Of a DNA stretch of 64,000 nucleotides, positions 4,800 to 36,970 are shown in pieces. Location of the stretch: NCBI RefSeq assembly GCF_055900595.2, contig NZ_CM148325.1, one strand, 5' to 3'. Under the pieces are notes generated by a model, which was given only the letters and a program-made list of their open reading frames with translations, was not told where the DNA came from and made no database searches. A program made the translations under genes and the position numbers. Numbering within the stretch: position 1 is the stretch's first letter; each line of letters starts with the position of its first letter.

Positions 4800-4919
4800 G
4801 CAATCACCATGTACACACAAAAAAACCGCTTGCAACAACAAACCGGAACAGGGTACGCTTCCCCCGCACCTCATAAAACGGGTGTCGGGTTTCGCAGCCT
4901 GCTGACTAGCAAAGCGCAC

Positions 4920-4940
4920 AACCGCGCCAGCGGTTTTTTT
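4920..4940 (+). terminator. Intrinsic terminator inside the leader of the replication operon
   Basis: AACCGC-GCCA-GCGGTT stem-loop followed by a U-run (7 T in total). Its 3' half and U-tract are also part of a 15-bp long-range pairing with 4816-4830. Confidence 0.55.
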
Positions 4941-4981
4941 GTGCGTACTGTATTGCCACGTCTTTTTCGCACACGAATTAT

Positions 4982-5062
4982 GGCGGGGCGTACGGGGCCG
5001 ACTTCGGTCGGGCCGGGTTCTTTGCTAGCCGGTACTGCGAACCTCGTACGTCTCGCCACCCA
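4982..5062 (+). ncRNA. C4 (P1/P7) / CI (P4)-type antisense RNA candidate, tRNA-like
   Basis: A 13-bp closing helix pairs 4982-4994 with 5045-5057 (11 Watson-Crick and 2 G-U pairs), followed by ACCCA. It encloses a C(UUCG)G hairpin (4995-5014) and a second hairpin (5016-5043). The second hairpin carries CUUUGCUAG (5020-5028) and CUGCGAA (5035-5041), which are complementary to sites on both sides of the RNA. Confidence 0.55.
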
Positions 5063-5119
5063 CAGTTTCGCAGCTCTGGATGGTGAGTTTTTAAAACTTA
5101 CTAGCAAAGAGGCCACACC

Positions 5120-5782: not shown

Positions 5783-8272
5783 ATGGAGTTCGTCAGAGAC
5801 TGGCAAAAACCGCGCCCCGCTATCGGGCGCGAAGGCTTACCCGTACCTGAAACCGCACTGGATACCATCCTGAAGTGTTACCGCGCAGACGAAGAGCGCG
5901 CACTGCACGCTGAAGAGCAGGGTCATCCGCTTGCGGGCACAACCATCGGTAACGCGATCGACAAGTGGGAAGGCGCACAGGAGCGCCAGGAAGAGGCCAT
6001 CACGCTCACACAGGAAGCGAGAAGACACCCGCCCACCCTTATTGAGGAAACCCTCAAAGAGCTGGACACCCTGCCCAAGTGGTTGAGGCTGCCGCTGATT
6101 AAGCACCTGAACTTTTTAAGGCGCAAACAGGAGGACGAACAACAGAAAGGCAAGCGCGGCAAGGACACCCGCAAATATGAGCGCTTCCTGAAAAACGGCA
6201 TCCCCGCACGTCTTCGCCGTATTCGTGAGATTAACGCTCGCTTTGCACCGTTAAGTTTTCAGGCCGCTGCCATGCGCGAGAGTCTGGAAGAACTGATCAC
6301 ACTGCCGAACCTGAGCCGTGAACGCATCCAGAAAATAGCCGTACTGCTTGCCAGCGCCGTTAAAATGCATCTTGCCGACGCAATGGACAAGGCCCGCGAA
6401 ATAACAGGGAACGACAAAGACGACAACCTGAACAACTGGCTGATTGCCTACCAGTATATTGGTCGCCGTGTCCTGAAGCTGGGGATCACCCCACCATACT
6501 GGAGCGCCCTTGAACTCCGCCCCGACCGCAGAAGCCCCCCGGACGTGACACTGGTTCCGGGCGCTGTTTTGCGCCTGAACGACGCCGAATGGTGGAATAA
6601 AAAACTTCGCCAGATGCACGACGTCTGGCGTGAGGAACTTTTACGTGCAGCGGGCCTTGTATCCCGCCAGACCTCCGTTTATGTGAGCCGTGAAGCGCTG
6701 GCAGACTTCCGCGAAAAACAGGCCCGTACCCGCGATTTTCTCAAAGCGCACGACGTGGAGAACGAAGACGGCGAACGCATCAGTCTGGAAGATATCTACT
6801 ACGCCAGTACATCCAACCCGCATAACCGCCGCAACGAGATGATGGCGTGCGTTAAGGGAATGGAGCTTATCGCACAGGAACGCGGCGACGTGGCCTTCTT
6901 CGTCACGGTCACAGCCCCGTCTCGTTTTCACAGCGTCACCGACGCAGGCACGCTGAACCCGAAATACAAAGGCGCAACCGTAAAGGACGCCAGCGACTAT
7001 CTGGTTTATAACTTCTTCGCCTCCGCCCGCAAACTCATCAAAAAAGAGAAGCGGGGCTGGTACGGCATTCGCACCGTGGAGCCTCACCACGACGGCACGC
7101 CCCACTGGCACATGCTGGTATTCACAAGCCCTGAGAACGAAGAGCGCATCACGGAAATCATGTGCAATGCCGCCATTCGCGAAGACCGGGCAGAGCTGGG
7201 CGACGACATCACCCCGCGCTTCAAGTGCGAGAAGATAGATCCCGAAAAAGGCACGCCAACCAGCTACATCGCCACCTACATAGGCAAAGGCATTGACGCC
7301 GCTGCATTCGGCGACACGGATCCAAAAACAGGTAAACCGCCCGTTGACCACGAAAGCGGAAAACCTATGGCGGACACCGTGGAAAACGCCGTCGCCTGGG
7401 CGCGCCTGCATCGCATTCGCCAGTTCCAGTTCTTTGGCCTCCCTTCCCGTCAGGTGTGGCGTGAGTTCCGCCGCCTTGCCGGACAAATGGCACGCAACCC
7501 GAAGGGGCCGCAGGCACTGACCAACCCCAAAGCCGACGCCCTCCTTGTTGCAGCCGATACGGGGTGTTTTGCCAGCTACATCATGCATCAGGGCGGTGTG
7601 CTCATTCCCCGTAGTGAATATCTGGCCCGCACAGCCTACGTCACCGCAGAAGAGCCGAACAATTACAGCGAATTCCCCGAGCGCATTTACGGTATCCGCA
7701 TGCCGGAACTGGGGGAGGACTTCACGTTATGCACCCACCCGGAAGAGTGGAAAATCGTCAGAAAGGAACCGGAACCAGACAACCGCACGGGCGAGGGTTT
7801 TGACCTTCAGGGCGGCCCCGCCGCCCCTTGGACTCGTGGCAATAACTGTCACCCTGACGAAAAAACAACCAACAACAGCACACAAACAGAACAGTCAGAG
7901 TGGGCAAAACTGCCCCCCTTACCCCCATCGTCGGACGGTTTTGTGAGCTGGTTTAAGTCGCTTAAGAGGCCGGACAGGAAAAAACTACAAAGATTGCTCA
8001 AAAAACGCACCGAAGAGAGTCGCCAGAACGCCAGCGGCGGCACCGACACACCCACCGACACCATTAACCTGGGCGTTGTGCTGCCGGAACTGCCGGAAAT
8101 CGTGCAAGTCCGCCGCGATCTGGAAGCGCTGGGCGCGGACTTCCCCGAAGCAATGGCCCATTCCGTCTTTATGGGTGCCCGCGTTCGTCTGGGTGACGGT
8201 CGCACCGTTCACCGCGACGAGCAGACCGGGCGCATCACCGTCACCAGTCTGCAACCGGAGGCGAAACCATGA
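5783..8272 (+). CDS. A: Rolling-circle replication initiator endonuclease, P2 gpA family (829 aa)
   Basis: HUH-type metal motif EPHHDGTPHWHMLVF and tyrosine motif TSYIATYIGK. Same position and size class as P2 A. Confidence 0.9.
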   Translation: MEFVRDWQKPRPAIGREGLPVPETALDTILKCYRADEERALHAEEQGHPLAGTTIGNAIDKWEGAQERQEEAITLTQEARRHPPTLIEETLKELDTLPKWLRLPLIKHLNFLRRKQEDEQQKGKRGKDTRKYERFLKNGIPARLRRIREINARFAPLSFQAAAMRESLEELITLPNLSRERIQKIAVLLASAVKMHLADAMDKAREITGNDKDDNLNNWLIAYQYIGRRVLKLGITPPYWSALELRPDRRSPPDVTLVPGAVLRLNDAEWWNKKLRQMHDVWREELLRAAGLVSRQTSVYVSREALADFREKQARTRDFLKAHDVENEDGERISLEDIYYASTSNPHNRRNEMMACVKGMELIAQERGDVAFFVTVTAPSRFHSVTDAGTLNPKYKGATVKDASDYLVYNFFASARKLIKKEKRGWYGIRTVEPHHDGTPHWHMLVFTSPENEERITEIMCNAAIREDRAELGDDITPRFKCEKIDPEKGTPTSYIATYIGKGIDAAAFGDTDPKTGKPPVDHESGKPMADTVENAVAWARLHRIRQFQFFGLPSRQVWREFRRLAGQMARNPKGPQALTNPKADALLVAADTGCFASYIMHQGGVLIPRSEYLARTAYVTAEEPNNYSEFPERIYGIRMPELGEDFTLCTHPEEWKIVRKEPEPDNRTGEGFDLQGGPAAPWTRGNNCHPDEKTTNNSTQTEQSEWAKLPPLPPSSDGFVSWFKSLKRPDRKKLQRLLKKRTEESRQNASGGTDTPTDTINLGVVLPELPEIVQVRRDLEALGADFPEAMAHSVFMGARVRLGDGRTVHRDEQTGRITVTSLQPEAKP

Positions 8273-8679
8273 ACCGTTATCATTGTGTACTGCCGCGCCA
8301 CTACTTCGGTCAGATTATGCGCTCGCGTATTCCGGCGGTCACGCTGCGAAACCTGAGCACGGTACCGCAGCCGGGCGATGAGCTGGAAATCGCCGTAGCA
8401 GGCCCTGACCGTTCAGCCAGCTGCGTGACCGCCGACGTGCTGAACGCCGTGCCCGTAGGTGGTGACTGGCTGGTTGCCATCCGCTTCCGCCAAGACCCGT
8501 TCGCACCTGAACCGCTCACCCCCGCAGGCCGCATCATGCAGAACTGGCGGGATGAACGCGCGAAGGCGAACTGCGAAAAACTGATTAACAGGATTGCCAC
8601 GACAAACCGACATGCCGCGCTGGCGCGCCGGATATACCCCGCAAAATCAACACAACCAACAGGAGTAAAAGGCCCATGA
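8269..8679 (+). CDS. Hypothetical protein (136 aa), possibly with an ASCH/DUF3850-like PUA fold
   Basis: ATGA overlap with the A stop. The N-terminus HCVLPRHYFGQIMRSRIPAVTLRN....PGDELEI resembles the ASCH-type pattern. This is a weak, by-eye call. Confidence 0.45.
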   Translation: MNRYHCVLPRHYFGQIMRSRIPAVTLRNLSTVPQPGDELEIAVAGPDRSASCVTADVLNAVPVGGDWLVAIRFRQDPFAPEPLTPAGRIMQNWRDERAKANCEKLINRIATTNRHAALARRIYPAKSTQPTGVKGP

Positions 8680-8822
8680 AAAGAATCGCCGGAACTGACT
8701 ACCAGGAGCTGCTTAAAGCGGTGGAAAACTACCGTTCAGCGCTGGTGTGGTGTGAGATTAAGCCCTGTGACCCGGGAGCAGTTAAGGATTGCAACCGGCG
8801 CGTGAGGACATTCAGCGCGTAA
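8676..8822 (+). CDS. Small hypothetical protein (48 aa, MKRIAGTDYQELLKAVENYRSALVWCEIKPC...)
   Basis: ATGA overlap with the upstream ORF. Below the track cut-off. Confidence 0.35.
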   Translation: MKRIAGTDYQELLKAVENYRSALVWCEIKPCDPGAVKDCNRRVRTFSA

Positions 8823-8937
8823 TTGGCTACCGCTATGTAGCAGCCATTATTGACCTTGTGAATGAACTGGAGGAAGCAAAAGAGCGCATCGCAGAACTGG
8901 AAACCCAGAATAACCCCAACCAGCAGGAGCAGAAGCC

Positions 8938-9519
8938 ATGAAAAAAAGAGACCTTAAAAAACACCTCCGTAGTCAGATTGAATATTTTGAAGATAAGGCT
9001 GCAAAAACAGGGCTTTCCGGTAAAGAGAACATGAACTTCAGGGCACACCTCCTGACGTGGAGAATACTTAATATCACGAGAGATGGACTTGAGCCGCTAG
9101 CCTACCTGATGGAAGATGGCGAGACCCTCATACAGGATCCCAATGTGGAAATGGAGAAGAAAGAGATGGACCTGCCGATAATCGGGCTGTTTGAGATCCC
9201 TGAACTAATAGGACGTTATGAACACGAAAACCGCCAGCTTGCCGCCTTTTTATCCGTGACAATCGAACGACTGGAAACCGTGAAACACGATATTCCGTTC
9301 GGTTTTGATGAGCGCACCGAGGGTGATTTGCTCAGCTTTCAGATTGCCCTGAACGTGCTCACCGCAGAGCCTTCTGCGTGGCTACGCCCGGAACGGCACC
9401 ACAACACGTTCGCATTTACCGTAATTCCCTACGATGCCGCACAGGAAGAGGATAACTTCGAGACCAGGCTTGTTCCCCTGTATCAGATTGCGGATTTCTA
9501 TACGTTGATTCGCTGGTAA
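8938..9519 (+). CDS. Hypothetical cargo protein (193 aa), no recognisable domain
   Basis: AGGAG SD, visibly AT-rich codon usage compared with its neighbours, and a strong terminator after it. Confidence 0.55.
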   Translation: MKKRDLKKHLRSQIEYFEDKAAKTGLSGKENMNFRAHLLTWRILNITRDGLEPLAYLMEDGETLIQDPNVEMEKKEMDLPIIGLFEIPELIGRYEHENRQLAAFLSVTIERLETVKHDIPFGFDERTEGDLLSFQIALNVLTAEPSAWLRPERHHNTFAFTVIPYDAAQEEDNFETRLVPLYQIADFYTLIRW

Positions 9520-9534
9520 TCCCCCACAGTAAAA

Positions 9535-9557
9535 CAGCCCGACCGGGCTGTTTTTTT
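9535..9557 (+). terminator. Intrinsic terminator
   Basis: CAGCCC-GACC-GGGCTG followed by TTTTTTT. Confidence 0.7.
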
Positions 9558-9614
9558 ATCTGATATTTTTGATAACGTTGACCGGCTCATTAGCAAAAAA
9601 GCAAAGAGGAAAAC

Positions 9615-10001
9615 ATGAAAGCCCGTATCGGGATCATCCCGGAAAAAGCCCTGCGCCAGCACCTGATTGATATTGCCAGAGGGAAGCGAAAACCACAGCC
9701 CGACGAGCCAAAGGTATGGTTTTCATCCATCAATGCGGCAGGCCAGACGCTGAGCAATGAAAATATCGCCCTTCTGCGTCTTATGAATGAGGAGAAGCCG
9801 CAGACCATGACCGCACTTGCGGAGTTATCCGGCAGAAAACTGAGCAACCTGTCTGTAACCCTGAAAATGCTGAGCAGCTACGGTTTTGTCAGTCTGGAAA
9901 AGAAAGGGAATACTGTACACCCGAAAGCACTTTTTACCGATTTTGAAATCATCGTTGATCCGTCCGTGGGTTCAGTACATCGCGCCACCGCCCGGCCCTG
10001 A
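9615..10001 (+). CDS. Winged-HTH (MarR/ArsR-like) DNA-binding protein (128 aa)
   Basis: AAGAGG SD. The segment NIALLRLMNEEKPQTMTALAELSGRKLSNLSVTLKMLSSYGFVSLEKKGN is a typical wHTH. It is a single-gene unit between two terminators. Confidence 0.55.
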   Translation: MKARIGIIPEKALRQHLIDIARGKRKPQPDEPKVWFSSINAAGQTLSNENIALLRLMNEEKPQTMTALAELSGRKLSNLSVTLKMLSSYGFVSLEKKGNTVHPKALFTDFEIIVDPSVGSVHRATARP

Positions 10002-10013
10002 AGTGCGCAATAA

Positions 10014-10040
10014 ACAGCCCCGTTCGGGGCTGTTATTTAT
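10014..10040. terminator. Bidirectional hairpin terminator between convergent genes
   Basis: ACAGCCCC-GTTC-GGGGCTGT with T-rich flanks on both strands. Confidence 0.6.
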
Positions 10041-10411
10041 TCCAGAATCAGCTGTTCAGGTGTGCAGCCGTACAGTCTGGCAAGGCGCTCAATATTTGCC
10101 CTGCGCGGGCGTTCTGTTCTTTCGAATTCGGACACGGTAGCCTGCCTGATACCCAGCGCATCCGCCACCTGCTTTTGCGTCATTCCGCGATAGATTCGCC
10201 ACGCCGCCTGCATGGTGCAGCCACGTTCCGAGAGGATGTTGACCACCTCGTTGGGATACAGCGTATCAGGCGATGCACTCGGTTCGTTCTGGACGTCCTC
10301 GTAGAGTTCGTCAAGGTCGCTGTCTCCTGCCAGTTTTTCAAACAACGCCACTGGCAGAATGACGGATACCCTGTTACCCGCACCGTCAGTAATAAACTGA
10401 ATCTGACTCAT
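10037..10411 (-). CDS. Antitoxin: N-terminal Phd/YefM-like segment plus C-terminal Xre-type HTH (124 aa)
   Basis: The C-terminal MTQKQVADALGIRQATVSEFERTERPRRANIERLARLYG is an Xre HTH. It lies downstream of a RelE/ParE toxin gene (HigBA-like order). AGGAGGGG SD. Confidence 0.75.
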   Translation of the reverse strand: MSQIQFITDGAGNRVSVILPVALFEKLAGDSDLDELYEDVQNEPSASPDTLYPNEVVNILSERGCTMQAAWRIYRGMTQKQVADALGIRQATVSEFERTERPRRANIERLARLYGCTPEQLILE

Positions 10412-10451
10412 TTGCCCCTCCTGCTAAACATCGGTTTATTTTTTAATTTGC

Positions 10452-10484
10452 TGCCGGTGATAAAAAACGGCGGGTCGCCCCGCC
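10452..10484 (-). terminator. Strong intrinsic terminator between the toxin and antitoxin genes
   Basis: On the minus strand, directly after the toxin stop: GGCGGG-GCGA-CCCGCC followed by GTTTTTT. Confidence 0.6.
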
Positions 10485-10751
10485 TTAGTATGTTGTCGAG
10501 GTTCTCCGCTGAATACGGAGGATCCTGATAACCACTATCTGCCCTCCCTCAATCGTGAACCTGACACGGTAATGATTTACCCTGAGTCTGTACTCCCCGC
10601 CCGAGTCAGTGAGCTTTTTAATATCCAGATTCTGGAACTTCGGATAGCCATAAAGCGCGTTAACTTTCTCGCGTAAGGATTTCTGATCCCTCGCTGGCAA
10701 AACCCGTAAATCTTTGATTGCCCGAGGGGTCCACATGATTTCAGTCGTCAT
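10485..10751 (-). CDS. RelE/ParE-family toxin (88 aa from the ATG at 10751; the track start at 10757 is GTG)
   Basis: The sequence ..WTPRAIKDLRVLPARDQKSLREKVNAL...YRLRVNHYRVRFTIEGGQIVVIRILRIQRR has the typical RelE/ParE fold signature (YR.RVG.YR..F...). Confidence 0.8.
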   Translation of the reverse strand: MTTEIMWTPRAIKDLRVLPARDQKSLREKVNALYGYPKFQNLDIKKLTDSGGEYRLRVNHYRVRFTIEGGQIVVIRILRIQRRTSTTY

Positions 10752-10802
10752 AAACACACCGGAAGCAAATTATTAAAGAGCCGTGCCCGCTGGCACACCT
10801 TA

Positions 10803-10846
10803 AATATAGGTTTTAACCCCTATATTGTCAAACAAAATCCCTATAT
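10803..10846 (-). promoter_or_regulatory. Sigma70 promoter of the TA unit, overlapped by a palindromic operator
   Basis: On the minus strand, TTGACA (10831-10826), a 17-nt spacer and TATATT (10808-10803). The inverted repeat AATATAGG (10803-10810) / CCTATATT (10819-10826) and a third half-site CCTATAT (10840-10846) overlap the promoter. Confidence 0.55.
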
Positions 10847-10859
10847 CATGAAGTAAAAA

Positions 10860-11140
10860 AGCACCTCCCGCGACCTCCCTTTCCGGTGCACGAAAGTGCA
10901 CAAATTTGCACAATTTTTTTGAACGACTTTTTGCCCTTCCGGCCCGTGTGGCGTCTGGATCCGTCGGGGATCCGTGCGTGCACGAAAAAAGGCCTTTTTC
11001 TGCGCGCAGGTGACGGGGGAACAGCCCGCGTTTCAGGGGGTAAATAGCATTCCCTGAACGATGTTGCAGTGACACAACAGAATGGCTGTATTTCTCACGC
11101 TGAGCGTGAAAAAGACGTAAGGGCTTTTGATTTGATGGGG
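10860..11140. other. Probable cos / packaging-recognition region (non-coding, repeat-rich)
   Basis: It sits in the non-coding gap of about 580 bp between the TA unit and orf167, in the region where P2 has cos. It holds four GTGCAC/TGCAC motifs (10886, 10896, 10907, 10978), two of them as GTGCACGAAA. It also has the palindrome CTGCGCGCAG (11000-11009) and the G-rich 19-mer GGTGACGGGGGAACAGCCC (11009-11027), which matches about 12/19 of the remembered P2 cos end GGCGAGGCGGGGAAAGCAC. An alternative GGCGA-starting 19-mer lies at 11886-11904. Confidence 0.3.
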
Positions 11141-25515: not shown

Positions 25516-28500
25516 CTAATCTCTGTCACGGAAACTACCGACTGTCTGGCGGATACGGCGTTCCATTTCCGCACGGACGGCATCACCCACCATTTTTGCC
25601 AGTTCGCGCGGGTTTTGCGTGTGAACATCATGCAGGTGAATATGCAGTTCGCCAGTTAATCCCCATGGTGCCGGATCACTCTGACGCGGTCGGGGCGATG
25701 CGGGGGATATGGGCTGGCGCACAGCCTCAACCACCGGACGGGATGTTGCCGTTACGACGGGTGTCATTACCGGCGCAATATTGCCGGACACTACCGGTTT
25801 AATTACCGGGGAGAGCGTCGGTATAACATCGCCAGCCATAACCGGTTTGATCGCTGGCGAAATAACCGGAGCAACAGACTCAGCCATGACGGAACTGACA
25901 GGCTGAGGCGCTCTCACTATGCCAGCATCGATAACCAGCATGAGCTCGCGTACTGCCTCAAGGACAGGACGGGATATTGCCGCCATCACTGGTGTCATTA
26001 GCGGGGAGAACGTCGGCATGACATCGTGAGTCATAACCGGTTTGATCACCGGCGAAACCACCGGCGTAATATTACCGGACAGTACCGGACGGACGACCGG
26101 AGGAATAACCGGCACATTATTCACGGACACCACCGGCTTCACGACCGGCGACACGTTCGCCGTGGTGGATATCAGCGGCGAAACACTGACAGGCGGTGGC
26201 GCTGGCAGCGGTGGCAACGAAGGCACACTGACCGACGGCACCTGCGGCAGTCTGACAGGTGGCTCACTGACACTACCCGGTAACAGGGAAGCTGCGCGGT
26301 TAAAGCGTTCCTCCTTCCACTCACCACGAACGGCCAGCGCTTCCGGCAGGTTTTTAAAGATAATATCGCCGGGACCAGTGCGTTTTTTCGCCTGTTTCGC
26401 CTCATCCAGCAGGCCACCGGTGTTATCGACGATTTTATTCAGGCGACGCATGGTGCCGGTATTCTCCCCCGTCAGCGGAGCAGTTGCTGCAGGTGCAGGT
26501 ACTGGCGGCTTTTTGTCTTTGTCATTTTGCGGCGGATTAATGACATTAACATCCGCCAGGAGCATGGCGGCTTTCTCGTTCAGCAGCTCCTTCTGCTTCA
26601 GCTCTTCCGCCTTTTTCCGGGCGCGCTCAACCGCCGACGGAATCAGCCCGAGTTTTTCCAGCACCCGGGTTAATGAGTCAATCAGCAGCGTAACCGGACC
26701 GGTCACCAGATTGCTGATAAACTCCCCGACCTTCTGCCCGAACGTCCGCCCGGCTTCCGTGCACTTGTCCAGCTCATCCTTTGTTGTGCTTACCGGCGCG
26801 AACAAATCCACGAACCACTGCCACACACGCCCGATTGTCTGCCCGACATACTCAAACAATGGTCCCAGTGGTGCCACAGCCTCGCGCAGTGGCGTAAGCC
26901 CCTGCCACAGGCCGGACAAGAACCCGCCCACGACAGCCTTCAGCTGGTCCCAGTGCCGCCAGATAAGCACTGCCGCACCGACCAGTGTCGCCACCACAAG
27001 GCCCACCGGACTTAACAGAAAACCCAGCGCCCCGCCAAGTGCGCCCACCGCACCACTCACCATCCCCCACAGTGCGGGCAGACCTGACAGTCTGAGCGCC
27101 AGTATTCCGATACCGCGCCCCAGTGAAATCAGTGCGCCGCCAGGTGAAGTGAACGCAGCCAGCAGACCACCACGCAGCGCGCCAAGTCCCGCCTGCACAC
27201 CACGAAGCCGCCCCGCAACTACGCCCAGCAGTGCAGCAAACCGTCCGGCACCGGAGGTGATACCGACAAACAGCACGCGCCAGCCACCGATACCGCCCAG
27301 CGGACCACCGAGTACGCCGCGCAGCTGCGTCAGTAACGGCAGCGCACGACCGAGGCCGGATGTGCCGGTCAGCAGGGCAAACCCAAGACGCAGTTTTGCC
27401 AGCGGCCCCATCAACACACCAGTGGCAAGTGACAGCGCCCCCATGGCCGCAACCGCAGCCAGCAGTGCACCACCGGCAATCAGCAGTTGTTTTGTCAGTT
27501 CAGGGTGCGCCTGGGCCAGCGCGGTGACTTTCGCAATAACCCGGGTGAACGACTGCGTGACAGAACGCAGCGGCCCGTCAACGAGGTCAGCGACACGGAT
27601 ACGCAGCCCTTCCCATGCGCTGTTCAGTGATTTCAGGTCGCCGTCCAGGTTGTCCGCCATGATTCTGGCGTTTTCTTCCAGTTCGCCGTTCGCTGCCTGA
27701 ATCTCACGCGTCAGGCGCGGCAGGTTTTTTTCGCCTGCCTGTTCAACCAGGCTCATCAGGGAGACATACGCCTCCTGCCCGGCAATATCTGAAAAGAACG
27801 AGACTTTTGCCGCGTTACCGTATTTACGGGTGGCCTGATACAGCTCATACAGGATATCTTCCATCGGGCGCATGTTCCCGTAAGCATCCTGCGTTTCCAC
27901 GCCCAGCTGTTTCAGCGCCTTTGCTGCCGCTTTAGGCGGGTTCACAAGGCGGGACAGACTGGAGCGCAGCGCCGTACCAGCATCACTGCCACGTATCCCC
28001 ATCGACCCAAGCAACCCGGTCATGGCTGCGGTCTGTTCAAGAGACAGACCGAGTGAGGCGGCGACCGGTCCCGTATATTTCATCGTCTCACCAAGCCCGC
28101 GCAGGTCGGTATTGGTGCGGGTGAACGTTGCGGCCAGCGTGTCACCCACGCGGTTCATCTGGTCGGCAGACAACCCGAACTGCGTAAGGATATTTGAGCT
28201 GATATCGGCCGTCTGACCGAGGTCCATGCCGCTGGCCGTTGCCAGATTCAGCACGCCGGGAAGAGCCGCCTGTATCGCCTGCGGCGTGAACCCCGCCATG
28301 GCAAGGAACGCCTGACCGCTGGCAGCATCACCTGCGGTAAACTGCGTTTCGGAGCCGAGTTTAAGCGCCTGTTCGCGCAGCGCCTTAAACTGCGGACTGT
28401 TTTTGTCAATACGGGTCAGCGCCTGGACGCGCGACATCTCCTTACCAAAACTGACCGCCGGTTGCAGGAAACGCCCGGCCGCATAGCCACCTGCCGCTGC

Positions 28501-29058
28501 CGTGCCGACTGCCGTAAATCCACCCGCTTTCAGTTTTCCCGCCATCTCCTGAGCGCGGAAATATTGCTGGCGTGCCTGCGTGACGCGTGCCAGAGTCTGC
28601 CGTTCACGTTCCAGCTGTTCGTTGTATTGCTGTGTTCGCCGTATGGCCTGTTGAATGGTGTTGTCACTGCCGGAAAGCGCAATACCGTGACGCCGCAGCT
28701 CACCACCCAGTTCGCGCATTCGCTGAACTTCACGCGCACGGACCTCATTGAGACGCTCAAGTTTGAGGCTCAAATCGTTCATCAGCTTTTTCTGTTTGTC
28801 AGACAGCACGGTTCCGGCGCGCTGAATTTGCTGAAGTGCGCTTAACTGGCGTTGTGCCCGGGCAATGCCGTTTCCGGCCTTGTTTGCAGCCTCGCGGGCG
28901 CGATCAAATGAACGGGCGTGGCGTTCCAGGTTTTTGATCGCACCCTGCGTTCTCTGTATGGAGTCGCCAAGCTGGCCCATCATGCGACGGGCGTTTTCGG
29001 TGGGACGGGTCAGCCTGTCAACAGCGCTGAAGGCGACCCGTATATCAAGCGTTTTCAT
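25516..29058 (-). CDS. T: Tail tape-measure protein, gpT-like (about 1180 aa from the ATG at 29058; the track start at 29094 is GTG)
   Basis: Long helical, Ala/Gly/Leu-rich protein with a central hydrophobic region, between E/E' and U. The C-terminal third carries P/V-rich tandem repeats. Confidence 0.9.
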   Translation of the reverse strand: MKTLDIRVAFSAVDRLTRPTENARRMMGQLGDSIQRTQGAIKNLERHARSFDRAREAANKAGNGIARAQRQLSALQQIQRAGTVLSDKQKKLMNDLSLKLERLNEVRAREVQRMRELGGELRRHGIALSGSDNTIQQAIRRTQQYNEQLERERQTLARVTQARQQYFRAQEMAGKLKAGGFTAVGTAAAGGYAAGRFLQPAVSFGKEMSRVQALTRIDKNSPQFKALREQALKLGSETQFTAGDAASGQAFLAMAGFTPQAIQAALPGVLNLATASGMDLGQTADISSNILTQFGLSADQMNRVGDTLAATFTRTNTDLRGLGETMKYTGPVAASLGLSLEQTAAMTGLLGSMGIRGSDAGTALRSSLSRLVNPPKAAAKALKQLGVETQDAYGNMRPMEDILYELYQATRKYGNAAKVSFFSDIAGQEAYVSLMSLVEQAGEKNLPRLTREIQAANGELEENARIMADNLDGDLKSLNSAWEGLRIRVADLVDGPLRSVTQSFTRVIAKVTALAQAHPELTKQLLIAGGALLAAVAAMGALSLATGVLMGPLAKLRLGFALLTGTSGLGRALPLLTQLRGVLGGPLGGIGGWRVLFVGITSGAGRFAALLGVVAGRLRGVQAGLGALRGGLLAAFTSPGGALISLGRGIGILALRLSGLPALWGMVSGAVGALGGALGFLLSPVGLVVATLVGAAVLIWRHWDQLKAVVGGFLSGLWQGLTPLREAVAPLGPLFEYVGQTIGRVWQWFVDLFAPVSTTKDELDKCTEAGRTFGQKVGEFISNLVTGPVTLLIDSLTRVLEKLGLIPSAVERARKKAEELKQKELLNEKAAMLLADVNVINPPQNDKDKKPPVPAPAATAPLTGENTGTMRRLNKIVDNTGGLLDEAKQAKKRTGPGDIIFKNLPEALAVRGEWKEERFNRAASLLPGSVSEPPVRLPQVPSVSVPSLPPLPAPPPVSVSPLISTTANVSPVVKPVVSVNNVPVIPPVVRPVLSGNITPVVSPVIKPVMTHDVMPTFSPLMTPVMAAISRPVLEAVRELMLVIDAGIVRAPQPVSSVMAESVAPVISPAIKPVMAGDVIPTLSPVIKPVVSGNIAPVMTPVVTATSRPVVEAVRQPISPASPRPRQSDPAPWGLTGELHIHLHDVHTQNPRELAKMVGDAVRAEMERRIRQTVGSFRDRD

Positions 29059-31583: not shown

Positions 31584-32675
31584 ATGACCGACCTGTTAAT
31601 CAACGTTCCGTCACCGGATATCGAAATCACCATCAACAACAACAGACTCCGTAACGTCACGGAGCGGCTCATGACGCTGTCACTGACCGACAACCGGGGC
31701 TTTGAGGCGGACCGCGTCACCCTGACCATTGACGACGCGGACGGGCAGCTTCAGCTGGCACAGCGCGGCGCACGCCTGAACGTGATGATTGGCTGGCGCG
31801 GGGAGGCGCTGGTTAACAAGGGTGTCTACATCGTTGATGAAGTGACGTGGGAAGGCCCGCCGGACAAACTGACCATCACCGCCAGCAGCGCCGATTTTCG
31901 CGAAGAGTTCAACGTGAAGCGTGAAGTCTCCTGGCACGACGTGACGGTAAAACAGGTTGTGTCAGCCATCGCGCACCGCTACGGCCTGAAAGCACAGATA
32001 AGCGATATCCTCATGGATATCGAAATTGACCACGCAGACCAGACCGAAGAGAGCGATATATCCTTCCTGACCCGCATGGCTGAAATGCTGGGTGCGATTG
32101 CCACCGTAAAAAACGGCAGCCTGTTATTCATTCTGCCGGGTGGCGGAACCGGGCCGGACGGAAGAGCCCTGCCTTCGTTCGCCATTACCCGCAGCAGCGG
32201 CGACAGTCACCGCTTTCGCATTGCTGACCGTGATGCGTATACGGGGGTCCGGGCGCACTGGCTCGATCTGAAGTTCGGGCAAAAGAAAAAAGTGAACGTG
32301 AAGCGACGCAGGGAAGCCGGGAAACAGAAACAGGAGAAGAGCAGCAGCCGGGAAGGTGATTACATGGAGGGCGCGGAAGGGAACGTCTACGTTCTGCGCA
32401 GGACTTACCAGAATGAAGAAACCGCACGACGTGCAGCAGCTGCAAAGTGGCAGGAACTACAGCGGGGCGCGGCATCATTCTCCATCACGCTGGCGCGCGG
32501 TCGTGCCGACCTGTACCCTGAAATGCACGGCAGGGTAACAGGTTTTAAAAGCGAGGTGGACAATCAGGACTGGATTATTGCCAGGGTGGAGCACAGCATA
32601 GATGAAAGCGGCTTCACCACACAACTGGAGCTGGAAGCGAAAATCCCCGAATGGATAGCAGATTCAGGCGGATAA
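31584..32675 (+). CDS. D: Late tail/baseplate hub protein, P2 gpD-like
   Basis: ..MTLSLTDNRGFEADRVTLTIDDADGQ, SWHD, GDYMEG, KW..LQRG.A.FSI.LA.GRADLY match remembered P2 D. Confidence 0.9.
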   Translation: MTDLLINVPSPDIEITINNNRLRNVTERLMTLSLTDNRGFEADRVTLTIDDADGQLQLAQRGARLNVMIGWRGEALVNKGVYIVDEVTWEGPPDKLTITASSADFREEFNVKREVSWHDVTVKQVVSAIAHRYGLKAQISDILMDIEIDHADQTEESDISFLTRMAEMLGAIATVKNGSLLFILPGGGTGPDGRALPSFAITRSSGDSHRFRIADRDAYTGVRAHWLDLKFGQKKKVNVKRRREAGKQKQEKSSSREGDYMEGAEGNVYVLRRTYQNEETARRAAAAKWQELQRGAASFSITLARGRADLYPEMHGRVTGFKSEVDNQDWIIARVEHSIDESGFTTQLELEAKIPEWIADSGG

Positions 32676-32718
32676 AATTAAAATGAGCCATCTCCACTCA
32701 GCCAGATAAGGAGAAGCC

Positions 32719-32970
32719 ATGTTCCGTTGTCCCCTGTGCGGTGCATCCGCACGTATCCGCACCAGTCGCAATGAAAATGATTCAGGCACAGTTCGCCTGA
32801 AGTACTACCAGTGCAATAACCTCGAATGCGGGATCGGCTTTACCACACTGGAGGGTTTTAACAAATTCACATCAAAACGCGCCCCGTCGCCGCAGGGTAC
32901 AGAGCGGATACCGTGGGAAGATTTTCCGGGATCTCACAGGGGGAATGCTCAGATGAATCTTGATATTTAA
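32719..32970 (+). CDS. ogr: Late transcription activator, Ogr/Delta zinc-finger family
   Basis: MFRCPLCGASARIRTSR.......RLKYYQCNNLECG..FTT compares with P2 Ogr MFHCPLCQHAAHARTSR....ERYHQCQNVNCSATFIT (C-X2-C...C-X4-C). Confidence 0.85.
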   Translation: MFRCPLCGASARIRTSRNENDSGTVRLKYYQCNNLECGIGFTTLEGFNKFTSKRAPSPQGTERIPWEDFPGSHRGNAQMNLDI

Positions 32971-33019
32971 GAACAATAATCAGGTTGAGAGGACATCATA
33001 AGGCAAGTAGATTAACGGC

Positions 33020-33114
33020 AGATACTTTCCCGCAACCACGGGCAAGTATTTAATTATCCATGATGAAATATGACCTAAATTGTTTTTTGCCCGCCGGAAA
33101 GCGGGCATTTTTTT
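33020..33114 (+). ncRNA. sRNA-like module A (also an attR-core candidate)
   Basis: Promoter-like TTGAGA (32985-32990), 17-nt spacer, TAGATT (33008-33013). Extended stem-loop at 33020-33051. AU-rich single strand, then terminator GCCCGC-CGGAAA-GCGGGC followed by A and U7 (33089-33114). Confidence 0.35.
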
Positions 33115-33328
33115 ATTCTTTTGTGGTTATGGGGTCATCAGGAACCACGTGCAGATTATATTTTTGTTTTTTTGGCGTTCCTCCGGCAGCAACGAGTTCA
33201 TCAATAAGACACTGACACGCCTGAACATCCCGGGCATGTCTTAGTTTCACCTTTATTGATTTAACCTTATCCTCACCGGAGGAGAAATGCAGTTCAATCT
33301 CAATATCGTTTCTTCGGAACAATCTCAT
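33113..33328 (-). CDS. Small protein orf71 (71 aa), unknown family; paralogue of orf73
   Basis: G-rich SD (CAGGGGGG) 4 nt before the ATG. MRLFRRNDIEIELHFSSGEDKVKSIKVKLRHARDVQACQCLIDELVAAGGT... aligns by eye with orf73. AT-rich cassette. Confidence 0.45.
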   Translation of the reverse strand: MRLFRRNDIEIELHFSSGEDKVKSIKVKLRHARDVQACQCLIDELVAAGGTPKKQKYNLHVVPDDPITTKE

Positions 33329-33423
33329 ACGCCCCCCTGAACATATCAGAAATGCTAGTATCGAAAAATGAGAAAACAGTTAGACAGGAGAAACATATTA
33401 ACACAAATCATTTATACCTATAG

Positions 33424-33441
33424 ATGAAATTATAATTTCAT
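33424..33441. promoter_or_regulatory. Perfect 18-bp palindrome in the orf71 / module-B divergent gap
   Basis: ATGAAATTA|TAATTTCAT. It contains TATAAT on both strands. Candidate operator. Confidence 0.3.
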
Positions 33442-33500
33442 TCATGAATATGATAGATAACTATATTGTGAACAAAATGAAAAATGGCTAAATTAAAAAT

Positions 33501-33581
33501 GGGCATGGAGGAATGCCTCGTAATCAGTAATACATGATCCATACTTCCTTGTTTTGCCCGCCGGAAAGCGGGCATTTTTTT
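33501..33581 (+). ncRNA. sRNA-like module B
   Basis: TTGTGA (33466-33471), 17-nt spacer, TAAATT (33489-33494). 5' hairpin GGCAU-GGAGGA-AUGCC. Its terminator is identical to that of module A (33556-33581). Confidence 0.3.
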
Positions 33582-33685
33582 GGCGGTTACCATCGCCTCA
33601 CCTTCCTGGTTCACACAAAGCAACCCTGATTTTCCATGAAAACTTCAGGGTTGAGCCAAAAGCACAAAGACAGTAGATTAACCAA

Positions 33686-33783
33686 GGGTACCCGCCACCT
33701 GCCAACAGGAACGGTATCCAGTACGTATTAATGACTGACAATTCACATTGCTGTTTTGCCCGCCAGAAGGTGGGCATTTTTTT
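33686..33783 (+). ncRNA. sRNA-like module C
   Basis: TTGAGC (33651-33656), 17-nt spacer, TAGATT (33674-33679). Stem GGGUACC/GGUAUCC (33686-33692 / 33713-33719) encloses CCUG-CCAA-CAGG. Terminator GCCCGCC-AGAA-GGUGGGC followed by U-run (33758-33783). Confidence 0.35.
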
Positions 33784-33888
33784 GGCAGTTATCATGGACG
33801 CACCTTCATGACACATATTAAGCAGACCTGATTTTTCCATGAAAAATTCATGGTTGAGACAAAAGCACAAAAACAGTAGATTAACCAC

Positions 33889-33987
33889 GGGTGCCTGCCA
33901 CCTGACAACAGGAAGGGGTGTCCATTATCCATGATATACAAACGAAAAGTCTTGTCTTTTGCCCGCCGTTGCGCGGGCTTTTTTTTT
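33889..33987 (+). ncRNA. sRNA-like module D
   Basis: TTGAGA (33854-33859), 17-nt spacer, TAGATT (33877-33882). The homologous stem 33889-33895 / 33917-33923 keeps pairing only through G-U wobbles. Terminator GCCCGC-CGUUGC-GCGGGC followed by U9 (33961-33987). Confidence 0.35.
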
Positions 33988-34016
33988 GCCACCCTCACCA
34001 GTGAGGGTACCATCAT

Positions 34017-34238
34017 TCAGAGGCGCGTAAGCCACCCGGCGTTAACATCCTGCCCGTCAACCCTGACCGCAGAGTCTGAACGGCAGGCACCGGAAGCAGT
34101 ACCAAAAACACCTCTGACAAGTTCCGCCACCTTCCCGATATCATCAGGCGCCACATTCCTCACCTCGACAGCGATCCGTGGCGTACCATCATCGTTAACA
34201 AGCGTGGCTTTAAGGCTGGTACGACGGGCAAATAACAT
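34017..34238 (-). CDS. Small protein orf73 (73 aa), paralogue of orf71
   Basis: Strong SD GGGAGGGGG 5 nt before the ATG at 34238. MLFARRTSLKATLVNDDGTPRIAVEVRNVAPDDIGKVAELVRGVFGTASG... The longer 95-aa track ORF lacks an SD. Confidence 0.45.
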   Translation of the reverse strand: MLFARRTSLKATLVNDDGTPRIAVEVRNVAPDDIGKVAELVRGVFGTASGACRSDSAVRVDGQDVNAGWLTRL

Positions 34239-34288
34239 CAACACCCCCTCCCTTCGGTTCGTTGCACTGGCAGCACGATACCACCAGG

Positions 34289-34329
34289 AAAAAGAAAAGC
34301 CCACAACGTCAGGATTGCGGGCTTTTTTT
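34289..34329. terminator. Bidirectional terminator / last att-core-like hairpin before the copA promoter
   Basis: AGCCCACAA-CGTCAGGA-TTGCGGGCT flanked by an A-run (5' side) and T7 (3' side). In style it resembles the remembered P2 att core (AAAAAATAAGCCCG...). Confidence 0.5.
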
Positions 34330-34395
34330 CTTCAAAAATGGACACTACGTGGACACTGATTAAATAATCCTTTCTTAATCAGACTGTTAAAATGC

Positions 34396-34426
34396 TTGAC
34401 CTTCCCCTTGCTGGAAGGTTTAACCT
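34396..34426 (+). promoter_or_regulatory. copA promoter with CueR (MerR-type) operator
   Basis: TTGACC (34396-34401), 19-bp spacer, TAACCT (34421-34426). Dyad ACCTTCC-N7-GGAAGGT at 34399-34419. This is the established CueR-activated promoter architecture. Confidence 0.85.
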
Positions 34427-34465
34427 TTAACACAGTCAGTCAACACTGTCTTAAAGGAGTACGTT

Positions 34466-36970
34466 ATGTCACAAACTATCGACCTGACCCTGGACGGCCT
34501 GTCCTGCGGTCACTGCGTTAAACGCGTGAAAGAAAGTCTCGAACAGCGCCCGGATGTTGAGCAGGCGGATGTGTCTATCACTGAAGCGCACGTTACCGGT
34601 ACTGCCAGTGCAGAACAGCTGATCGAAACCATCAAACAAGCGGGTTATGACGCATCTGTAAGCCACCCAAAGGCTAAACCGCTGGCGGAGTCATCAATCC
34701 CGTCGGAAGCACTGACAGCGGTTTCTGAGGCGCTTCCGGCAGCAAACGCCGATGACGATGACAGTCAGCAGTTGCTGCTGAGCGGCATGAGCTGCGCCAG
34801 CTGTGTTACCCGCGTACAAAATGCGCTGCAAAGCGTACCGGGCGTCACTCAGGCACGGGTAAACCTGGCGGAGCGTACTGCGCTGGTGATGGGCAGTGCC
34901 TCCCCACAAGATTTAGTGCAGGCAGTGGAAAAAGCGGGCTACGGCGCGGAAGCGATTGAAGATGACGCTAAACGCCGCGAGCGCCAGCAGGAAACCGCCG
35001 TCGCTACCATGAAGCGCTTCCGCTGGCAGGCAATTGTCGCTCTGGCGGTAGGTATCCCGGTGATGGTCTGGGGGATGATCGGCGATAACATGATGGTCAC
35101 CGCCGACAACCGCAGTCTGTGGTTAGTTATCGGCCTGATAACGCTGGCGGTAATGGTTTTCGCCGGCGGGCATTTTTACCGTAGCGCATGGAAAAGCCTG
35201 CTGAACGGTGCGGCGACAATGGATACGCTGGTGGCGCTGGGTACTGGCGTGGCGTGGCTCTATTCAATGAGCGTCAACCTGTGGCCGCAGTGGTTCCCGA
35301 TGGAAGCGCGACATCTTTATTACGAAGCCAGTGCGATGATTATCGGTCTGATTAATCTCGGTCATATGCTGGAAGCGCGCGCACGTCAGCGTTCTTCAAA
35401 GGCGCTGGAGAAATTACTCGATTTAACCCCGCCGACGGCGCGCCTGGTCACTGACGAAGGTGAAAAAAGCGTGCCGCTGGCAGATGTTCAGCCTGGTATG
35501 TTACTACGCCTGACGACCGGCGATCGCGTACCGGTAGATGGTGAAATTACCCAGGGCGAAGCGTGGCTGGATGAAGCAATGCTGACGGGCGAACCTATTC
35601 CGCAGCAAAAAGGCGAAGGCGATAGCGTTCATGCAGGTACCGTGGTGCAGGACGGTAGCGTGCTGTTTCGTGCCAGTGCGGTTGGCAGCCATACTACGCT
35701 GTCACGGATCATTCGTATGGTGCGCCAGGCCCAGAGCAGTAAACCGGAAATCGGCCAGTTGGCGGATAAAATCTCTGCCGTATTTGTGCCGGTAGTGGTG
35801 GTGATTGCGCTGGTCAGTGCGGCAATCTGGTACTTCTTTGGTCCGGCACCGCAAATTGTTTATACCCTGGTGATTGCCACTACGGTACTGATTATCGCCT
35901 GCCCGTGTGCGCTGGGGCTGGCAACGCCAATGTCGATTATTTCCGGCGTCGGGCGTGCGGCTGAATTTGGCGTGCTGGTGCGGGACGCCGACGCGCTGCA
36001 GCGCGCCAGTACGCTCGACACCGTAGTGTTCGATAAAACCGGGACGCTGACCGAAGGGAAGCCGCAGGTTGTCGCAGTAAAAACATTTGCTGATGTTGAT
36101 GAAGCGCAAGCATTGCGTCTGGCGGCGGCACTGGAACAAGGTTCCAGCCATCCGCTGGCACGGGCGATCCTCGATAAAGCAGGCGATATGCAGCTGCCGC
36201 AGGTCAACAGCTTCCGTACATTGCGTGGGCTGGGCGTGAGCGGTGAAGCAGAAGGTCATGCGTTATTGCTGGGTAATCAGGCGTTGTTAAATGACCAGCA
36301 AGTCGATACTAAAGCGATTGAAGCAGATATTTCAGCCCAGGCATCGCAAGGGGCAACGCCTGTGCTGCTGGCGGTTGACGGGAAAGCGGTGGCCTTGCTG
36401 GCGGTGCGCGATCCGTTGCGTAACGATAGTGTGGCGGCACTGCAACGTCTGCATAAAGCGGGATATCGTCTGGTGATGCTAACCGGGGATAACCCGACCA
36501 CCGCCAATGCGATCGCCAAAGAAGCAGGGATTGATGAGGTGATAGCCGGCGTGCTGCCAGACGGTAAAGCCGAAGCGATCAAACGTCTGCAAAGTGAAGG
36601 ACGTCAGGTGGCAATGGTGGGCGACGGCATTAACGACGCGCCAGCGCTGGCTCAGGCGGATGTCGGTATTGCTATGGGTGGCGGCAGCGATGTTGCCATT
36701 GAAACCGCGGCGATTACCCTGATGCGCCATAGCCTGATGGGTGTTGCGGATGCGCTCGCAATTTCCCGCGCAACGCTGCGCAACATGAAGCAGAACCTGC
36801 TCGGTGCGTTTATCTACAACAGCATTGGTATTCCGGTCGCCGCCGGTATTTTGTGGCCGTTCACGGGAACACTGCTTAACCCGGTGGTTGCCGGAGCGGC
36901 AATGGCGCTCTCGTCGATTACCGTAGTGAGTAACGCCAACCGGTTGCTGCGGTTTAAACCGAAGGAATAA
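34466..36970 (+). CDS. copA: Cu(I)-exporting P-type ATPase
   Basis: 834 aa, with two N-terminal GLSCGHC/GMSCASC metal-binding domains, CPC, DKTGT and GDGINDAP motifs. Recognised as E. coli CopA. Confidence 0.97.
34666..34672 (+). other. copA -1 programmed frameshift site giving CopA(Z)
   Basis: Slippery C CCA AAG at codons 67-69. The -1 frame reads GGC TAA, giving the published 70-aa metallochaperone product. Confidence 0.7.

Follow-up and report, generated by a model that had tools for sequence, protein, structure and literature searches.

The window analysed here is a stretch of 64,000 nucleotides (nt) of contig NZ_CM148325.1 (assembly GCF_055900595.2). It comes from E. coli and contains a P2-like prophage between glsA and copA, with the start of the window falling within int. 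The ogr gene is the final conserved phage gene 5' of a cargo block, in which four small RNA (sRNA)-like modules, termed A to D, and an open reading frame (ORF) for 71 amino acids (aa), termed ORF71, are located. The modules appear to be derived from the two ends of the hok mRNA gene, a type I toxin gene that is present in related phages. In the following list of ogr and the modules, tac and fbi are the 5' and 3' elements of hok mRNA that pair with each other, hok1 and hok2 are hok genes of related phages, and L002 is a locus of one of these phages. All of these features are on the plus strand.

32719..32970, plus: ogr, 83 aa (Pfam Ogr_Delta, E=4.9e-14; RefSeq annotation of an identical locus)
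32985..33013, plus: promoter of module A, TTGAGA-17 nt-TAGATT, from the pattern search (hexamers 12/12 and spacer 8/17 identical to D)
33020..33114, plus: predicted RNA of module A, ~95 nt, with a hairpin of 8+4 bp, a single-stranded UUAUCCAUGAU... tail, a terminator at 33088-33107 and U7
33466..33494, plus: promoter of module B, TTGTGA-17 nt-TAAATT (-35 at 33466-33471, -10 at 33489-33494), which aligns with the hok1 promoter of L002
33501..33581, plus: predicted RNA of module B, ~81 nt, with a hairpin GGGCAU/AUGCCU, UACUUCCUU resembling an anti-Shine-Dalgarno (SD) sequence in the tail, and a terminator at 33555-33574
33651..33679, plus: promoter of module C, TTGAGC-17 nt-TAGATT, from the pattern search
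33686..33783, plus: predicted RNA of module C, ~98 nt, with a tac/fbi-type 5' hairpin, a single-stranded tail and a terminator at 33757-33776; it aligns with the 5' and 3' ends of hok
33854..33882, plus: promoter of module D, TTGAGA-17 nt-TAGATT, from the pattern search
33889..33987, plus: predicted RNA of module D, ~97 nt, with a terminator at 33961-33978 that is fused to DNA located 3' of the hok2 terminator in related phages

The four terminators (TTTTGCCCGCC-loop-GCGGGCATTTTTTT) are located at 33085-33114, 33552-33581, 33754-33783 and 33957-33986, and no such terminator is found in shuffled sequences. Those of A and B are identical to each other at 30/30 nt, and those of C and D match them at 27/30 and 25/30 nt, respectively. 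Exactly three matches to the pattern TTGAGM-N17-TAGATTAAC are present (32985, 33651 and 33854; 0.08 matches in shuffles), and TTGTGA-N17-TAAATT is read in front of B. These results agree with a preliminary description of this DNA, in which four modules with conserved terminators, a promoter shared by A, C and D, and a variant promoter of B combined with the terminator of A were proposed. The tandem repeat that this description assigned to C and D is also present, but its period is 203 bp, with ~2 copies and 78-84% matches as determined by TRF, instead of ~195 bp.

When the RNA starts are set 7 nt after each -10 (33020, 33501, 33686 and 33889), the RNAs are predicted to fold into a hairpin that begins at nucleotide 1, an unpaired AU-rich middle, which is a candidate accessible seed, and a terminator with U7-U9, as expected from the Hfq-sRNA-like layout proposed previously. 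The pairing of the 5' stem of C and D is retained, as had also been noted, with one-sided or wobble changes only. The RNA of module A has a predicted folding energy of -27.7 kcal/mol (z=-3.4), and it is 100% identical in 11/11 loci that hold module A. Alignment of the module variants, which are numbered within each letter (B1, D2), gives 10 distinct tails, or 12 RNAs if terminator-loop variants are counted, and a 5'-terminal hairpin, an unpaired middle and a terminator are predicted for 9/10 variants. The motif WWATCMRTRA (UUAUCCAUGAU, GUAUCAAUGAC and UAAUCAGUAAU) is located directly 3' of the hairpin in all modules. The alignment and this common motif indicate that all four modules, B included, are homologous. 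The preliminary description was incomplete in this respect, because it did not recognise the homology of B to A, C and D or the descent from hok, and overlooked the minus-strand gene for 71 aa at 33113-33328.

Hfq-type sRNAs have promoters and terminators of their own. Sigma-70-like promoters with exact 17-bp spacing are predicted for the modules, and UUUU, GCCCGCC-loop-GCGGGC and U7-U9 are present in four of the four. As a prediction, these results support the notion that the modules constitute a phage-borne family of independently transcribed, non-coding, sRNA-like genes. This family does not correspond to a named sRNA, as the preliminary description had suspected: Rfam gives no match in the block at gathering thresholds, and the best sub-threshold matches (18-24 bits, E<=10) are driven by the terminators. 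In the literature searched, neither RNAs of this kind nor sRNA genes beside ogr in P2-like prophages are described, and a full-text search did not find the exact terminator sequence of the modules.

Relation of the modules to hok mRNA

A total of 80 IMG/VR loci encode a relative of the Ogr protein of the window, and 77 of them encode one with 71-73% identity. In nearly all of the loci of these sister phages that were read, a hok/sok locus is located directly 3' of ogr, which is the position occupied by the modules in the window. Exactly one hok-type promoter/5'-end motif is present in 74/77 of them, and none contains units like modules A to D.

Over their promoters and ~17 initial nt, C and D (TTGAGA-N17-TAGATTaaccacGGGTGCCTGCCACCTGA) can be aligned with the hok promoter and the start of hok mRNA (ATTGCC-N17-TAGATTacgcgcGGGTGCCTTTCGGCTGA), such that the -10 TAGATTA is followed by ..C.CGGGTGCCT..C..CTGA. 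Thus, both the hok promoter and tac at +1 are found in C and D, and the promoter only in B. In the case of A, the -35 TTG and the -10 TAGATTA align with those of hok, and the position after ogr is the same. The Rfam model of the sok/hok leader begins at the same +1, with GGGUGCC.

The 3' side of module D is also similar to hok. The region of D located 3' of the loop aligns with the 3' end of hok2 mRNA with a score of 36, as compared to a mean of 7.1 (sd 3.0, max 20) for 200 shuffles. The fbi element GGCGCCC, TTCCCTG.., ACAAAACAAAAAA and TTTGCCCGCCATTGAGAGGGC at the 3' end of hok2 are matched in D by fbi-like GGUGUCC, UUAUCCAUG.., ACAAACGAAAAG and UUUUGCCCGCC-loop-GCGGGC, respectively. Module variant C2 aligns with the same end with a score of 21 (shuffles, 7.1 +/- 3.1). 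In the predicted fold of the full-length mRNA of the phage hok1 gene, the first 15 nt form a 15-bp stem with a segment that has GGCACCC at its end. This stem is followed by a 21-nt unpaired tail and then a terminator, and this is the architecture of the modules. Closure of hok mRNA by such pairing between its 5' and 3' ends has been published as the tac/fbi model, and the 3' tail is trimmed when hok mRNA is activated (PMC9841398).

The modules are termed mini-hok, because the hok promoter and 5' end are joined in them to the fbi element, tail and terminator of the hok 3' end. As judged from these alignments, they have the architecture of hok with its ~310-nt interior replaced by a short loop. 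They resemble hok mRNAs, such as those of plasmid R1 parB and the chromosomal and phage homologues, in having a homologous promoter and +1, a 5' tac that pairs with a 3' fbi, and a single-stranded 3' tail followed by an intrinsic terminator. They differ from hok in that ucb, dcb, mok, the Sok target and the hok ORF are absent, so that no toxin is made and no Sok is bound, and in that the tac/fbi stem is local and the units occur in 3-6 copies with divergent tails. Hok/Gef or any other Pfam family is not matched by any ORF in the block, hok being annotated only in related loci. The Rfam sok model (RF01794) likewise finds nothing at 32600-34500 of the window even at E<=10, and it matches the two hok loci of L002 at 6890-7049 and 8895-9052 with E~1e-8. 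The block is therefore not a hok/sok locus, since it contains neither a toxin ORF nor a Sok target.

The terminator of D is joined to DNA that is located 3' of the hok2 terminator in L002 and in L015, a related prophage (blastn of L015 against the window). This joint indicates that the phage of the window lost hok by recombination between two terminators. The hok2 gene itself (L002 8895-9297, also present in L015) is a decaying second hok, in which the start codon ATG is changed to ATA and the -10 is deleted, and its terminator is of the same type as those of the modules.

By descent, the units thus appear to be derivatives of hok mRNA genes; they resemble prophage-encoded sRNAs but belong to no described family. 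Hfq-dependent sRNAs of E. coli prophages (AgvB/AsxR, DicF, Esr41, HnrS (PMC13502914) and svsR (PMC12803456)) are likewise short, non-coding and independently transcribed units in prophage accessory regions, with a U-rich stretch, a GC-rich terminator, a long U tail and several copies per genome, up to nine in the case of HnrS (PMC13502914). The modules share neither sequence nor an Rfam match with them (18-20 bits for AgvB against a threshold of 56). They are also carried by a P2-like rather than a lambdoid phage, form a tandem array with different tails and apparently originate from a toxin mRNA.

Possible role of the mini-hok units

The best explanation for the block is that it is cargo of a P2-like prophage and consists of four paralogous mini-hok units with a predicted role as trans-acting sRNAs and a gene for a small protein. 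The probability of this explanation is estimated to be roughly 0.6. According to this explanation, each unit would be made up of two parts: the hok promoter with the first ~17-30 nt of hok mRNA, in which the 5' tac element is located, and, directly adjacent, the hok fbi element with a single-stranded tail of ~20-35 nt and an intrinsic terminator. The interior of ~310 nt that contains ucb, mok, the Sok target and the hok ORF would have been lost. Because this interior is gone, the long-range tac/fbi stem of hok mRNA would now be a local 5' hairpin. The product would be a stable non-coding RNA of 80-98 nt, which starts at the base of the hairpin and ends with UUUU, a GC-rich hairpin and U7-U9, the layout of an Hfq-type (or ProQ-type) sRNA. 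Homologous recombination at the conserved promoters, hairpins and terminators would have increased the number of units to 3-6 per phage and rearranged them, with tails that differ from unit to unit. They would be constitutively transcribed in the lysogen from the hok-type sigma-70 promoters, and the RNAs would act in trans through the single-stranded tail on mRNAs of the host or competing phages. Several tails carry anti-start-codon (CAU) and anti-SD (CUUCCUU) words, and action of the modules as trans-acting sRNAs is plausible.

Comparison of the paralogues suggests that the units are maintained. The promoter hexamers of A and D1 are identical at 12/12 positions and their spacers at 8/17 (p=0.002), and the corresponding values for A and B1 are 10/12 and 4/17 (p=0.002). 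All variants have a spacing of 17, and the positions of the terminator stems are invariant while the loops are variable. Spacers and tails of the paralogues are as little as ~25-60% identical, yet the hexamers are nearly identical; in the truly decayed hok2, by contrast, the -10 and the start codon are gone. Conservation of the hexamers, the 17-bp spacing and the terminator stems in the presence of diverged spacers, loops and tails is an argument for maintenance of the modules as units of transcription. D1 and D2 have identical tails but differ in their spacers (9/17 identical) and hairpins. B1 and B2 are 94-100% identical in the promoter, hairpin and terminator and 61% identical in the tail, a pattern that points to abrupt, cassette-like exchange of tails. 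The repeated terminators act as joints for homologous recombination, not for Int-mediated integration.

Several results weigh against a role of the units in trans. The region is a recombination mosaic, in which rates are not cleanly comparable and selection is not rigorously measurable. The hairpin is inherited from hok and therefore does not by itself testify to a new function, and that of C and D shows no double-sided compensatory change. Decay products are expected in this lineage, because the neighbouring hok2 is visibly decaying. A, B and C1 resemble the hok 3' tail no more than shuffled sequences do, and the 3' descent of these modules therefore rests on their homology to D and C2. The block is very rare, being present in 30/5426 complete E. 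coli genomes (LH50-c, NZ_CP100500.1, and CS5L are among the carrier strains), 3 IMG/VR contigs and 5 metagenome contigs, and the exact promoter-plus-terminator pattern is found in no other species among the GTDB species representatives. In the prophage and the flanking host DNA, candidate targets amount only to matches of 9-11 nt, which is at chance level, and no target is found in orf71 mRNA. A function as a sponge of C4, isrK or ChiX was rejected (z-scores near 0), and so was mimicry of RyhB by module C. C2 shares the 11-mer CUCACAUUGCU with the seed region of RyhB and has a terminator of similar shape, but it reaches only 18 bits with the Rfam model (threshold 55), the words common to both RNAs are arranged differently, and the predicted pairing at the sodB translation start is no better than that of shuffled sequences (z=-0.5). 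An 11-mer match can be explained by chance, considering how many sRNAs are known.

A further proposal, which we regard as tentative and on balance doubtful, is that the array represents a set of regulatory sRNAs that is carried by the phage, is shuffled by recombination and originated from the 5' and 3' ends of a type I toxin mRNA. The tac/fbi stem would then have taken on a new role as a 5' hairpin that protects the RNA, and the hok 3' tail as a seed cassette that can be exchanged. The lysogen might use the set to reprogram genes of the host or against phages or plasmids that compete with it. If this proposal is correct, it would document a route of sRNA birth by exaptation of the untranslated regions of a toxin mRNA. 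Related prophages still show the ancestor (hok after ogr in sister phages), the decaying hok2 and the multiplied products. If the RNAs are made and active, they would clearly exemplify the origin of new sRNA genes from the untranslated ends of a toxin mRNA, P2-like phages would join the phages with known sRNA cargo, and the array would be a small natural system for studying the exchange of seed-like tails among constant frames of promoter, hairpin and terminator.

The main rival explanation is that the modules have no function and arose by decay of hok/sok loci: the toxin was disarmed by internal deletions, the scars were subsequently copied through unequal crossing-over at the repeated ends, and any RNA produced is without a role. 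We consider this unlikely, but it is a serious competitor. The descent from hok, the presence of a decaying hok2 (ATG to ATA, -10 lost) within the same arrays, the loss of hok from the window by recombination between terminators, the very narrow distribution of the block, the lack of a target among the candidates examined and the lack of compensatory changes in the C/D hairpin are all consistent with decay. It is difficult to reconcile with decay that paralogues diverged to ~25-60% identity keep both hexamers, the 17-bp spacing and the terminator stems, when the decayed hok2 has lost its -10. Likewise, the tail of D is identical in D1 and D2 despite different spacers and hairpins, and arrays persist with or without an adjacent hok gene. 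If the RNAs are inert, the block exemplifies how disarming of a type I toxin locus generates sRNA look-alikes that are flagged by genome scans.

A residual role in the hok/sok circuit is a smaller possibility, and an improbable one. The mini-hok RNAs might still work as competitors for the nucleases that process the 3' end, or as decoys or anti-addiction RNAs, which would keep the processed hok mRNAs of resident or incoming elements closed. The modules carry copies of tac, fbi and the 3' tail that is trimmed in hok activation (PMC9841398), and some arrays are located directly upstream of a live hok. The fbi-like arm is, however, predicted to be locked in a stable local hairpin, the Sok target region is absent from the block by the Rfam search described above, the phage of the window has the array without hok, and the hairpins of A and B no longer match the tac element of phage hok.

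It is very improbable that the modules encode small proteins or type I toxins on either strand: ORFs can be delineated mechanically and the minus strand of B1 has an ATG preceded by AAGGAAG, but none of the 10 ORFs of the block on both strands has a Pfam match, the plus-strand ORFs begin upstream of a promoter or run through a terminator, the ATGGAT ORFs of the minus strand are disrupted in B2, in B4, where ATG has become ACG, and by a frameshift that distinguishes D1 from D2, and variants differ by 1-nt indels throughout. The view of the preliminary description that the C/D repeat is probably non-coding is therefore retained; its plus-strand ORFs of 31 codons (33636-33731 and 33839-33934) are identical at 17/25 positions, start upstream of the -35 and have no SD sequence.

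Attachment sites, ORF71 and neighbouring features

The right end of the prophage and the other features between ogr and copA are as follows.

34395..34414, plus: core of the right attachment site (attR), CTTGACCTTCCCCTTGCTGG, 20 bp, from the three-way alignment of empty site, attL and attR; once in the window
34339..34355, plus: direct repeat TGGACAC-N4-TGGACA, a single match in the window
34017..34304, minus: ORF of 95 aa (annotated with 73 aa) between the array and the P' arm, without a family match
33113..33328, minus: ORF71, 71 aa, annotated as WP_001236182.1, between A and B
33424..33441, no strand: ATGAAATTATAATTTCAT, a perfect palindrome of 18 bp between ORF71 and module B, which are divergent
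33624..33650, no strand: imperfect 27-bp palindrome CCCTGATTTTCCATGAAAACTTCAGGG, which abuts the -35 of C; a second copy is located before D at ~33827-33853

The att core was mapped by aligning the empty site of strain NEBExpress with the attL and attR sides of the prophage. The 20-mer CTTGACCTTCCCCTTGCTGG is present at both prophage ends and at the empty site, overlaps the copA promoter and marks the true right end of the prophage. Because it is located at 34395-34414, the whole stretch from ogr to ~34394 is phage DNA. The TGGACAC-N4-TGGACA pair, which has a similar counterpart beside int at attL, probably represents the arm-type Int sites of the P' arm, and these repeats are >340 bp away from the last module. 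The same ogr-A-orf71-B-C-D block is present in prophages integrated at copA, downstream of serS and downstream of ihfA. Its presence at three different att sites indicates that it is phage cargo located between ogr and the attP arm.

P2 integrates at the 3' end of cyaR, and the preliminary description proposed by analogy that the module terminators serve as att cores and that the copies were left by serial integrations. At the copA locus, the first of these proposals is refuted by the alignment. A general explanation in which P2-like integrases use the terminators as att cores, and the modules are sRNA genes that repeated integrations have duplicated in part, has very little probability: the core is a sequence of the copA promoter, module terminators are absent from the attL side, an identical block is present at three unrelated att sites, six modules are located within the single prophage L015, and the arm-type repeats are located elsewhere. 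The second proposal also fails for the window, in which all four modules are within one prophage and are not remnants of serial integrations. It holds in part elsewhere: at serS in other strains, a prophage abuts a remnant of a related prophage, and the number of modules grows there by successive integrations; the intact form of this remnant (L015) contains its six modules internally. The block is not composed only of attP arm sequences either, a possibility that the preliminary description had raised, because it has four promoter-terminator pairs and the candidate arm repeats are outside it. As compared with sRNA genes whose 3' ends are used as att sites (P2/cyaR) and with P4-like elements at tRNA/tmRNA genes, the block similarly has an sRNA-like terminator near the prophage end, but its att core is a promoter sequence (PcopA) and its sRNA-like genes are wholly inside the phage.

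The copA promoter, into which the prophage integrates, is controlled by CueR, and the 20-bp core spans its -35 and part of the spacer. An intact copA promoter is restored at attR, with phage DNA now immediately upstream of its -35, and a partial copy of the promoter remains at attL beside int. The ORF at 34017-34304 has no match in any family library searched. It is kept beside the P' arm in the copA and serS prophages, and in the ihfA-site prophage the block is followed by hicAB in its place.

ORF71 corresponds only to the C-terminal half of the 128-133-aa proteins of PHROG 14142 (E=4.9e-12), to which no function is assigned. It has 8 matches at E<=0.001 among 1.84 billion representatives, with only three distant relatives (P0009-P0011), no Pfam, NCBIfam or PADLOC match, and, for an AF2 model with pLDDT 76, no fold match in PDB. 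It has its own start codon and a G-rich SD-like run, and the unit orf71-B-C is duplicated in related phages. A divergent type I toxin-antitoxin pair of ORF71 and B, or of ORF71 and other modules, was considered and rejected, the duplex energies being within those of shuffles. The palindrome ATGAAATTATAATTTCAT is a candidate operator; upstream of B3 in L002 its arms are retained and its centre is different. The 27-bp palindrome CCCTGATTTTCCATGAAAACTTCAGGG, with CCYTGA half-sites, is located at C and D and is kept in all of their variants. A and B lack it, suggesting that C and D alone are controlled by a regulator.

The block has no nucleotide match to deposited phages in either near or distant mode. 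One metagenome contig (L013, OERJ01002631.1), in which AT-rich DNA, apparently of another organism, is joined to module B2 exactly at the -10, was discarded as a chimeric assembly, which it most likely is. The terminator pattern without the promoter is found in unrelated single sRNA-like genes of Rahnella, Oxalobacteraceae and lambdoid contigs. This terminator shape, UUUUGCCCGCC-N6-CGGGCAUUUUUU, is present in such genes at L009 2294-2460 (minus strand) and L010 5740-5900 (plus strand), and in the Rahnella loci L018, L023-L025, L030 and L033-L035. One of these genes is located in lambdoid-looking viral contigs and has a CU-rich, anti-SD-like tail, and another is conserved across Rahnella species.

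Other accessory regions of the prophage were also noted. At the hot spot usual for P2, which is flanked by the replication and portal genes, an accessory cluster (L004 16711-19311, corresponding to ~8300-10900 of the window) contains a DUF6516/HVO_A0114-type pair, a RelE-family toxin with a helix-turn-helix partner, and a hypothetical gene. In the same prophage, that of NZ_CP100500.1, the tail tape-measure gene (L004 35707-37482, ~27300-29050 of the window) is annotated as an incomplete pseudogene beside an unannotated gap of ~1.7 kb, and this prophage may be defective. In the early region of the P2-like prophage, isrK (4866-4940) and C4 antisense RNA (4976-5063) are adjacent Rfam matches above gathering thresholds, located near a gene annotated as 'derepression protein'. 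This pair would represent a P1-type c4/ant immunity RNA in a P2-type phage.

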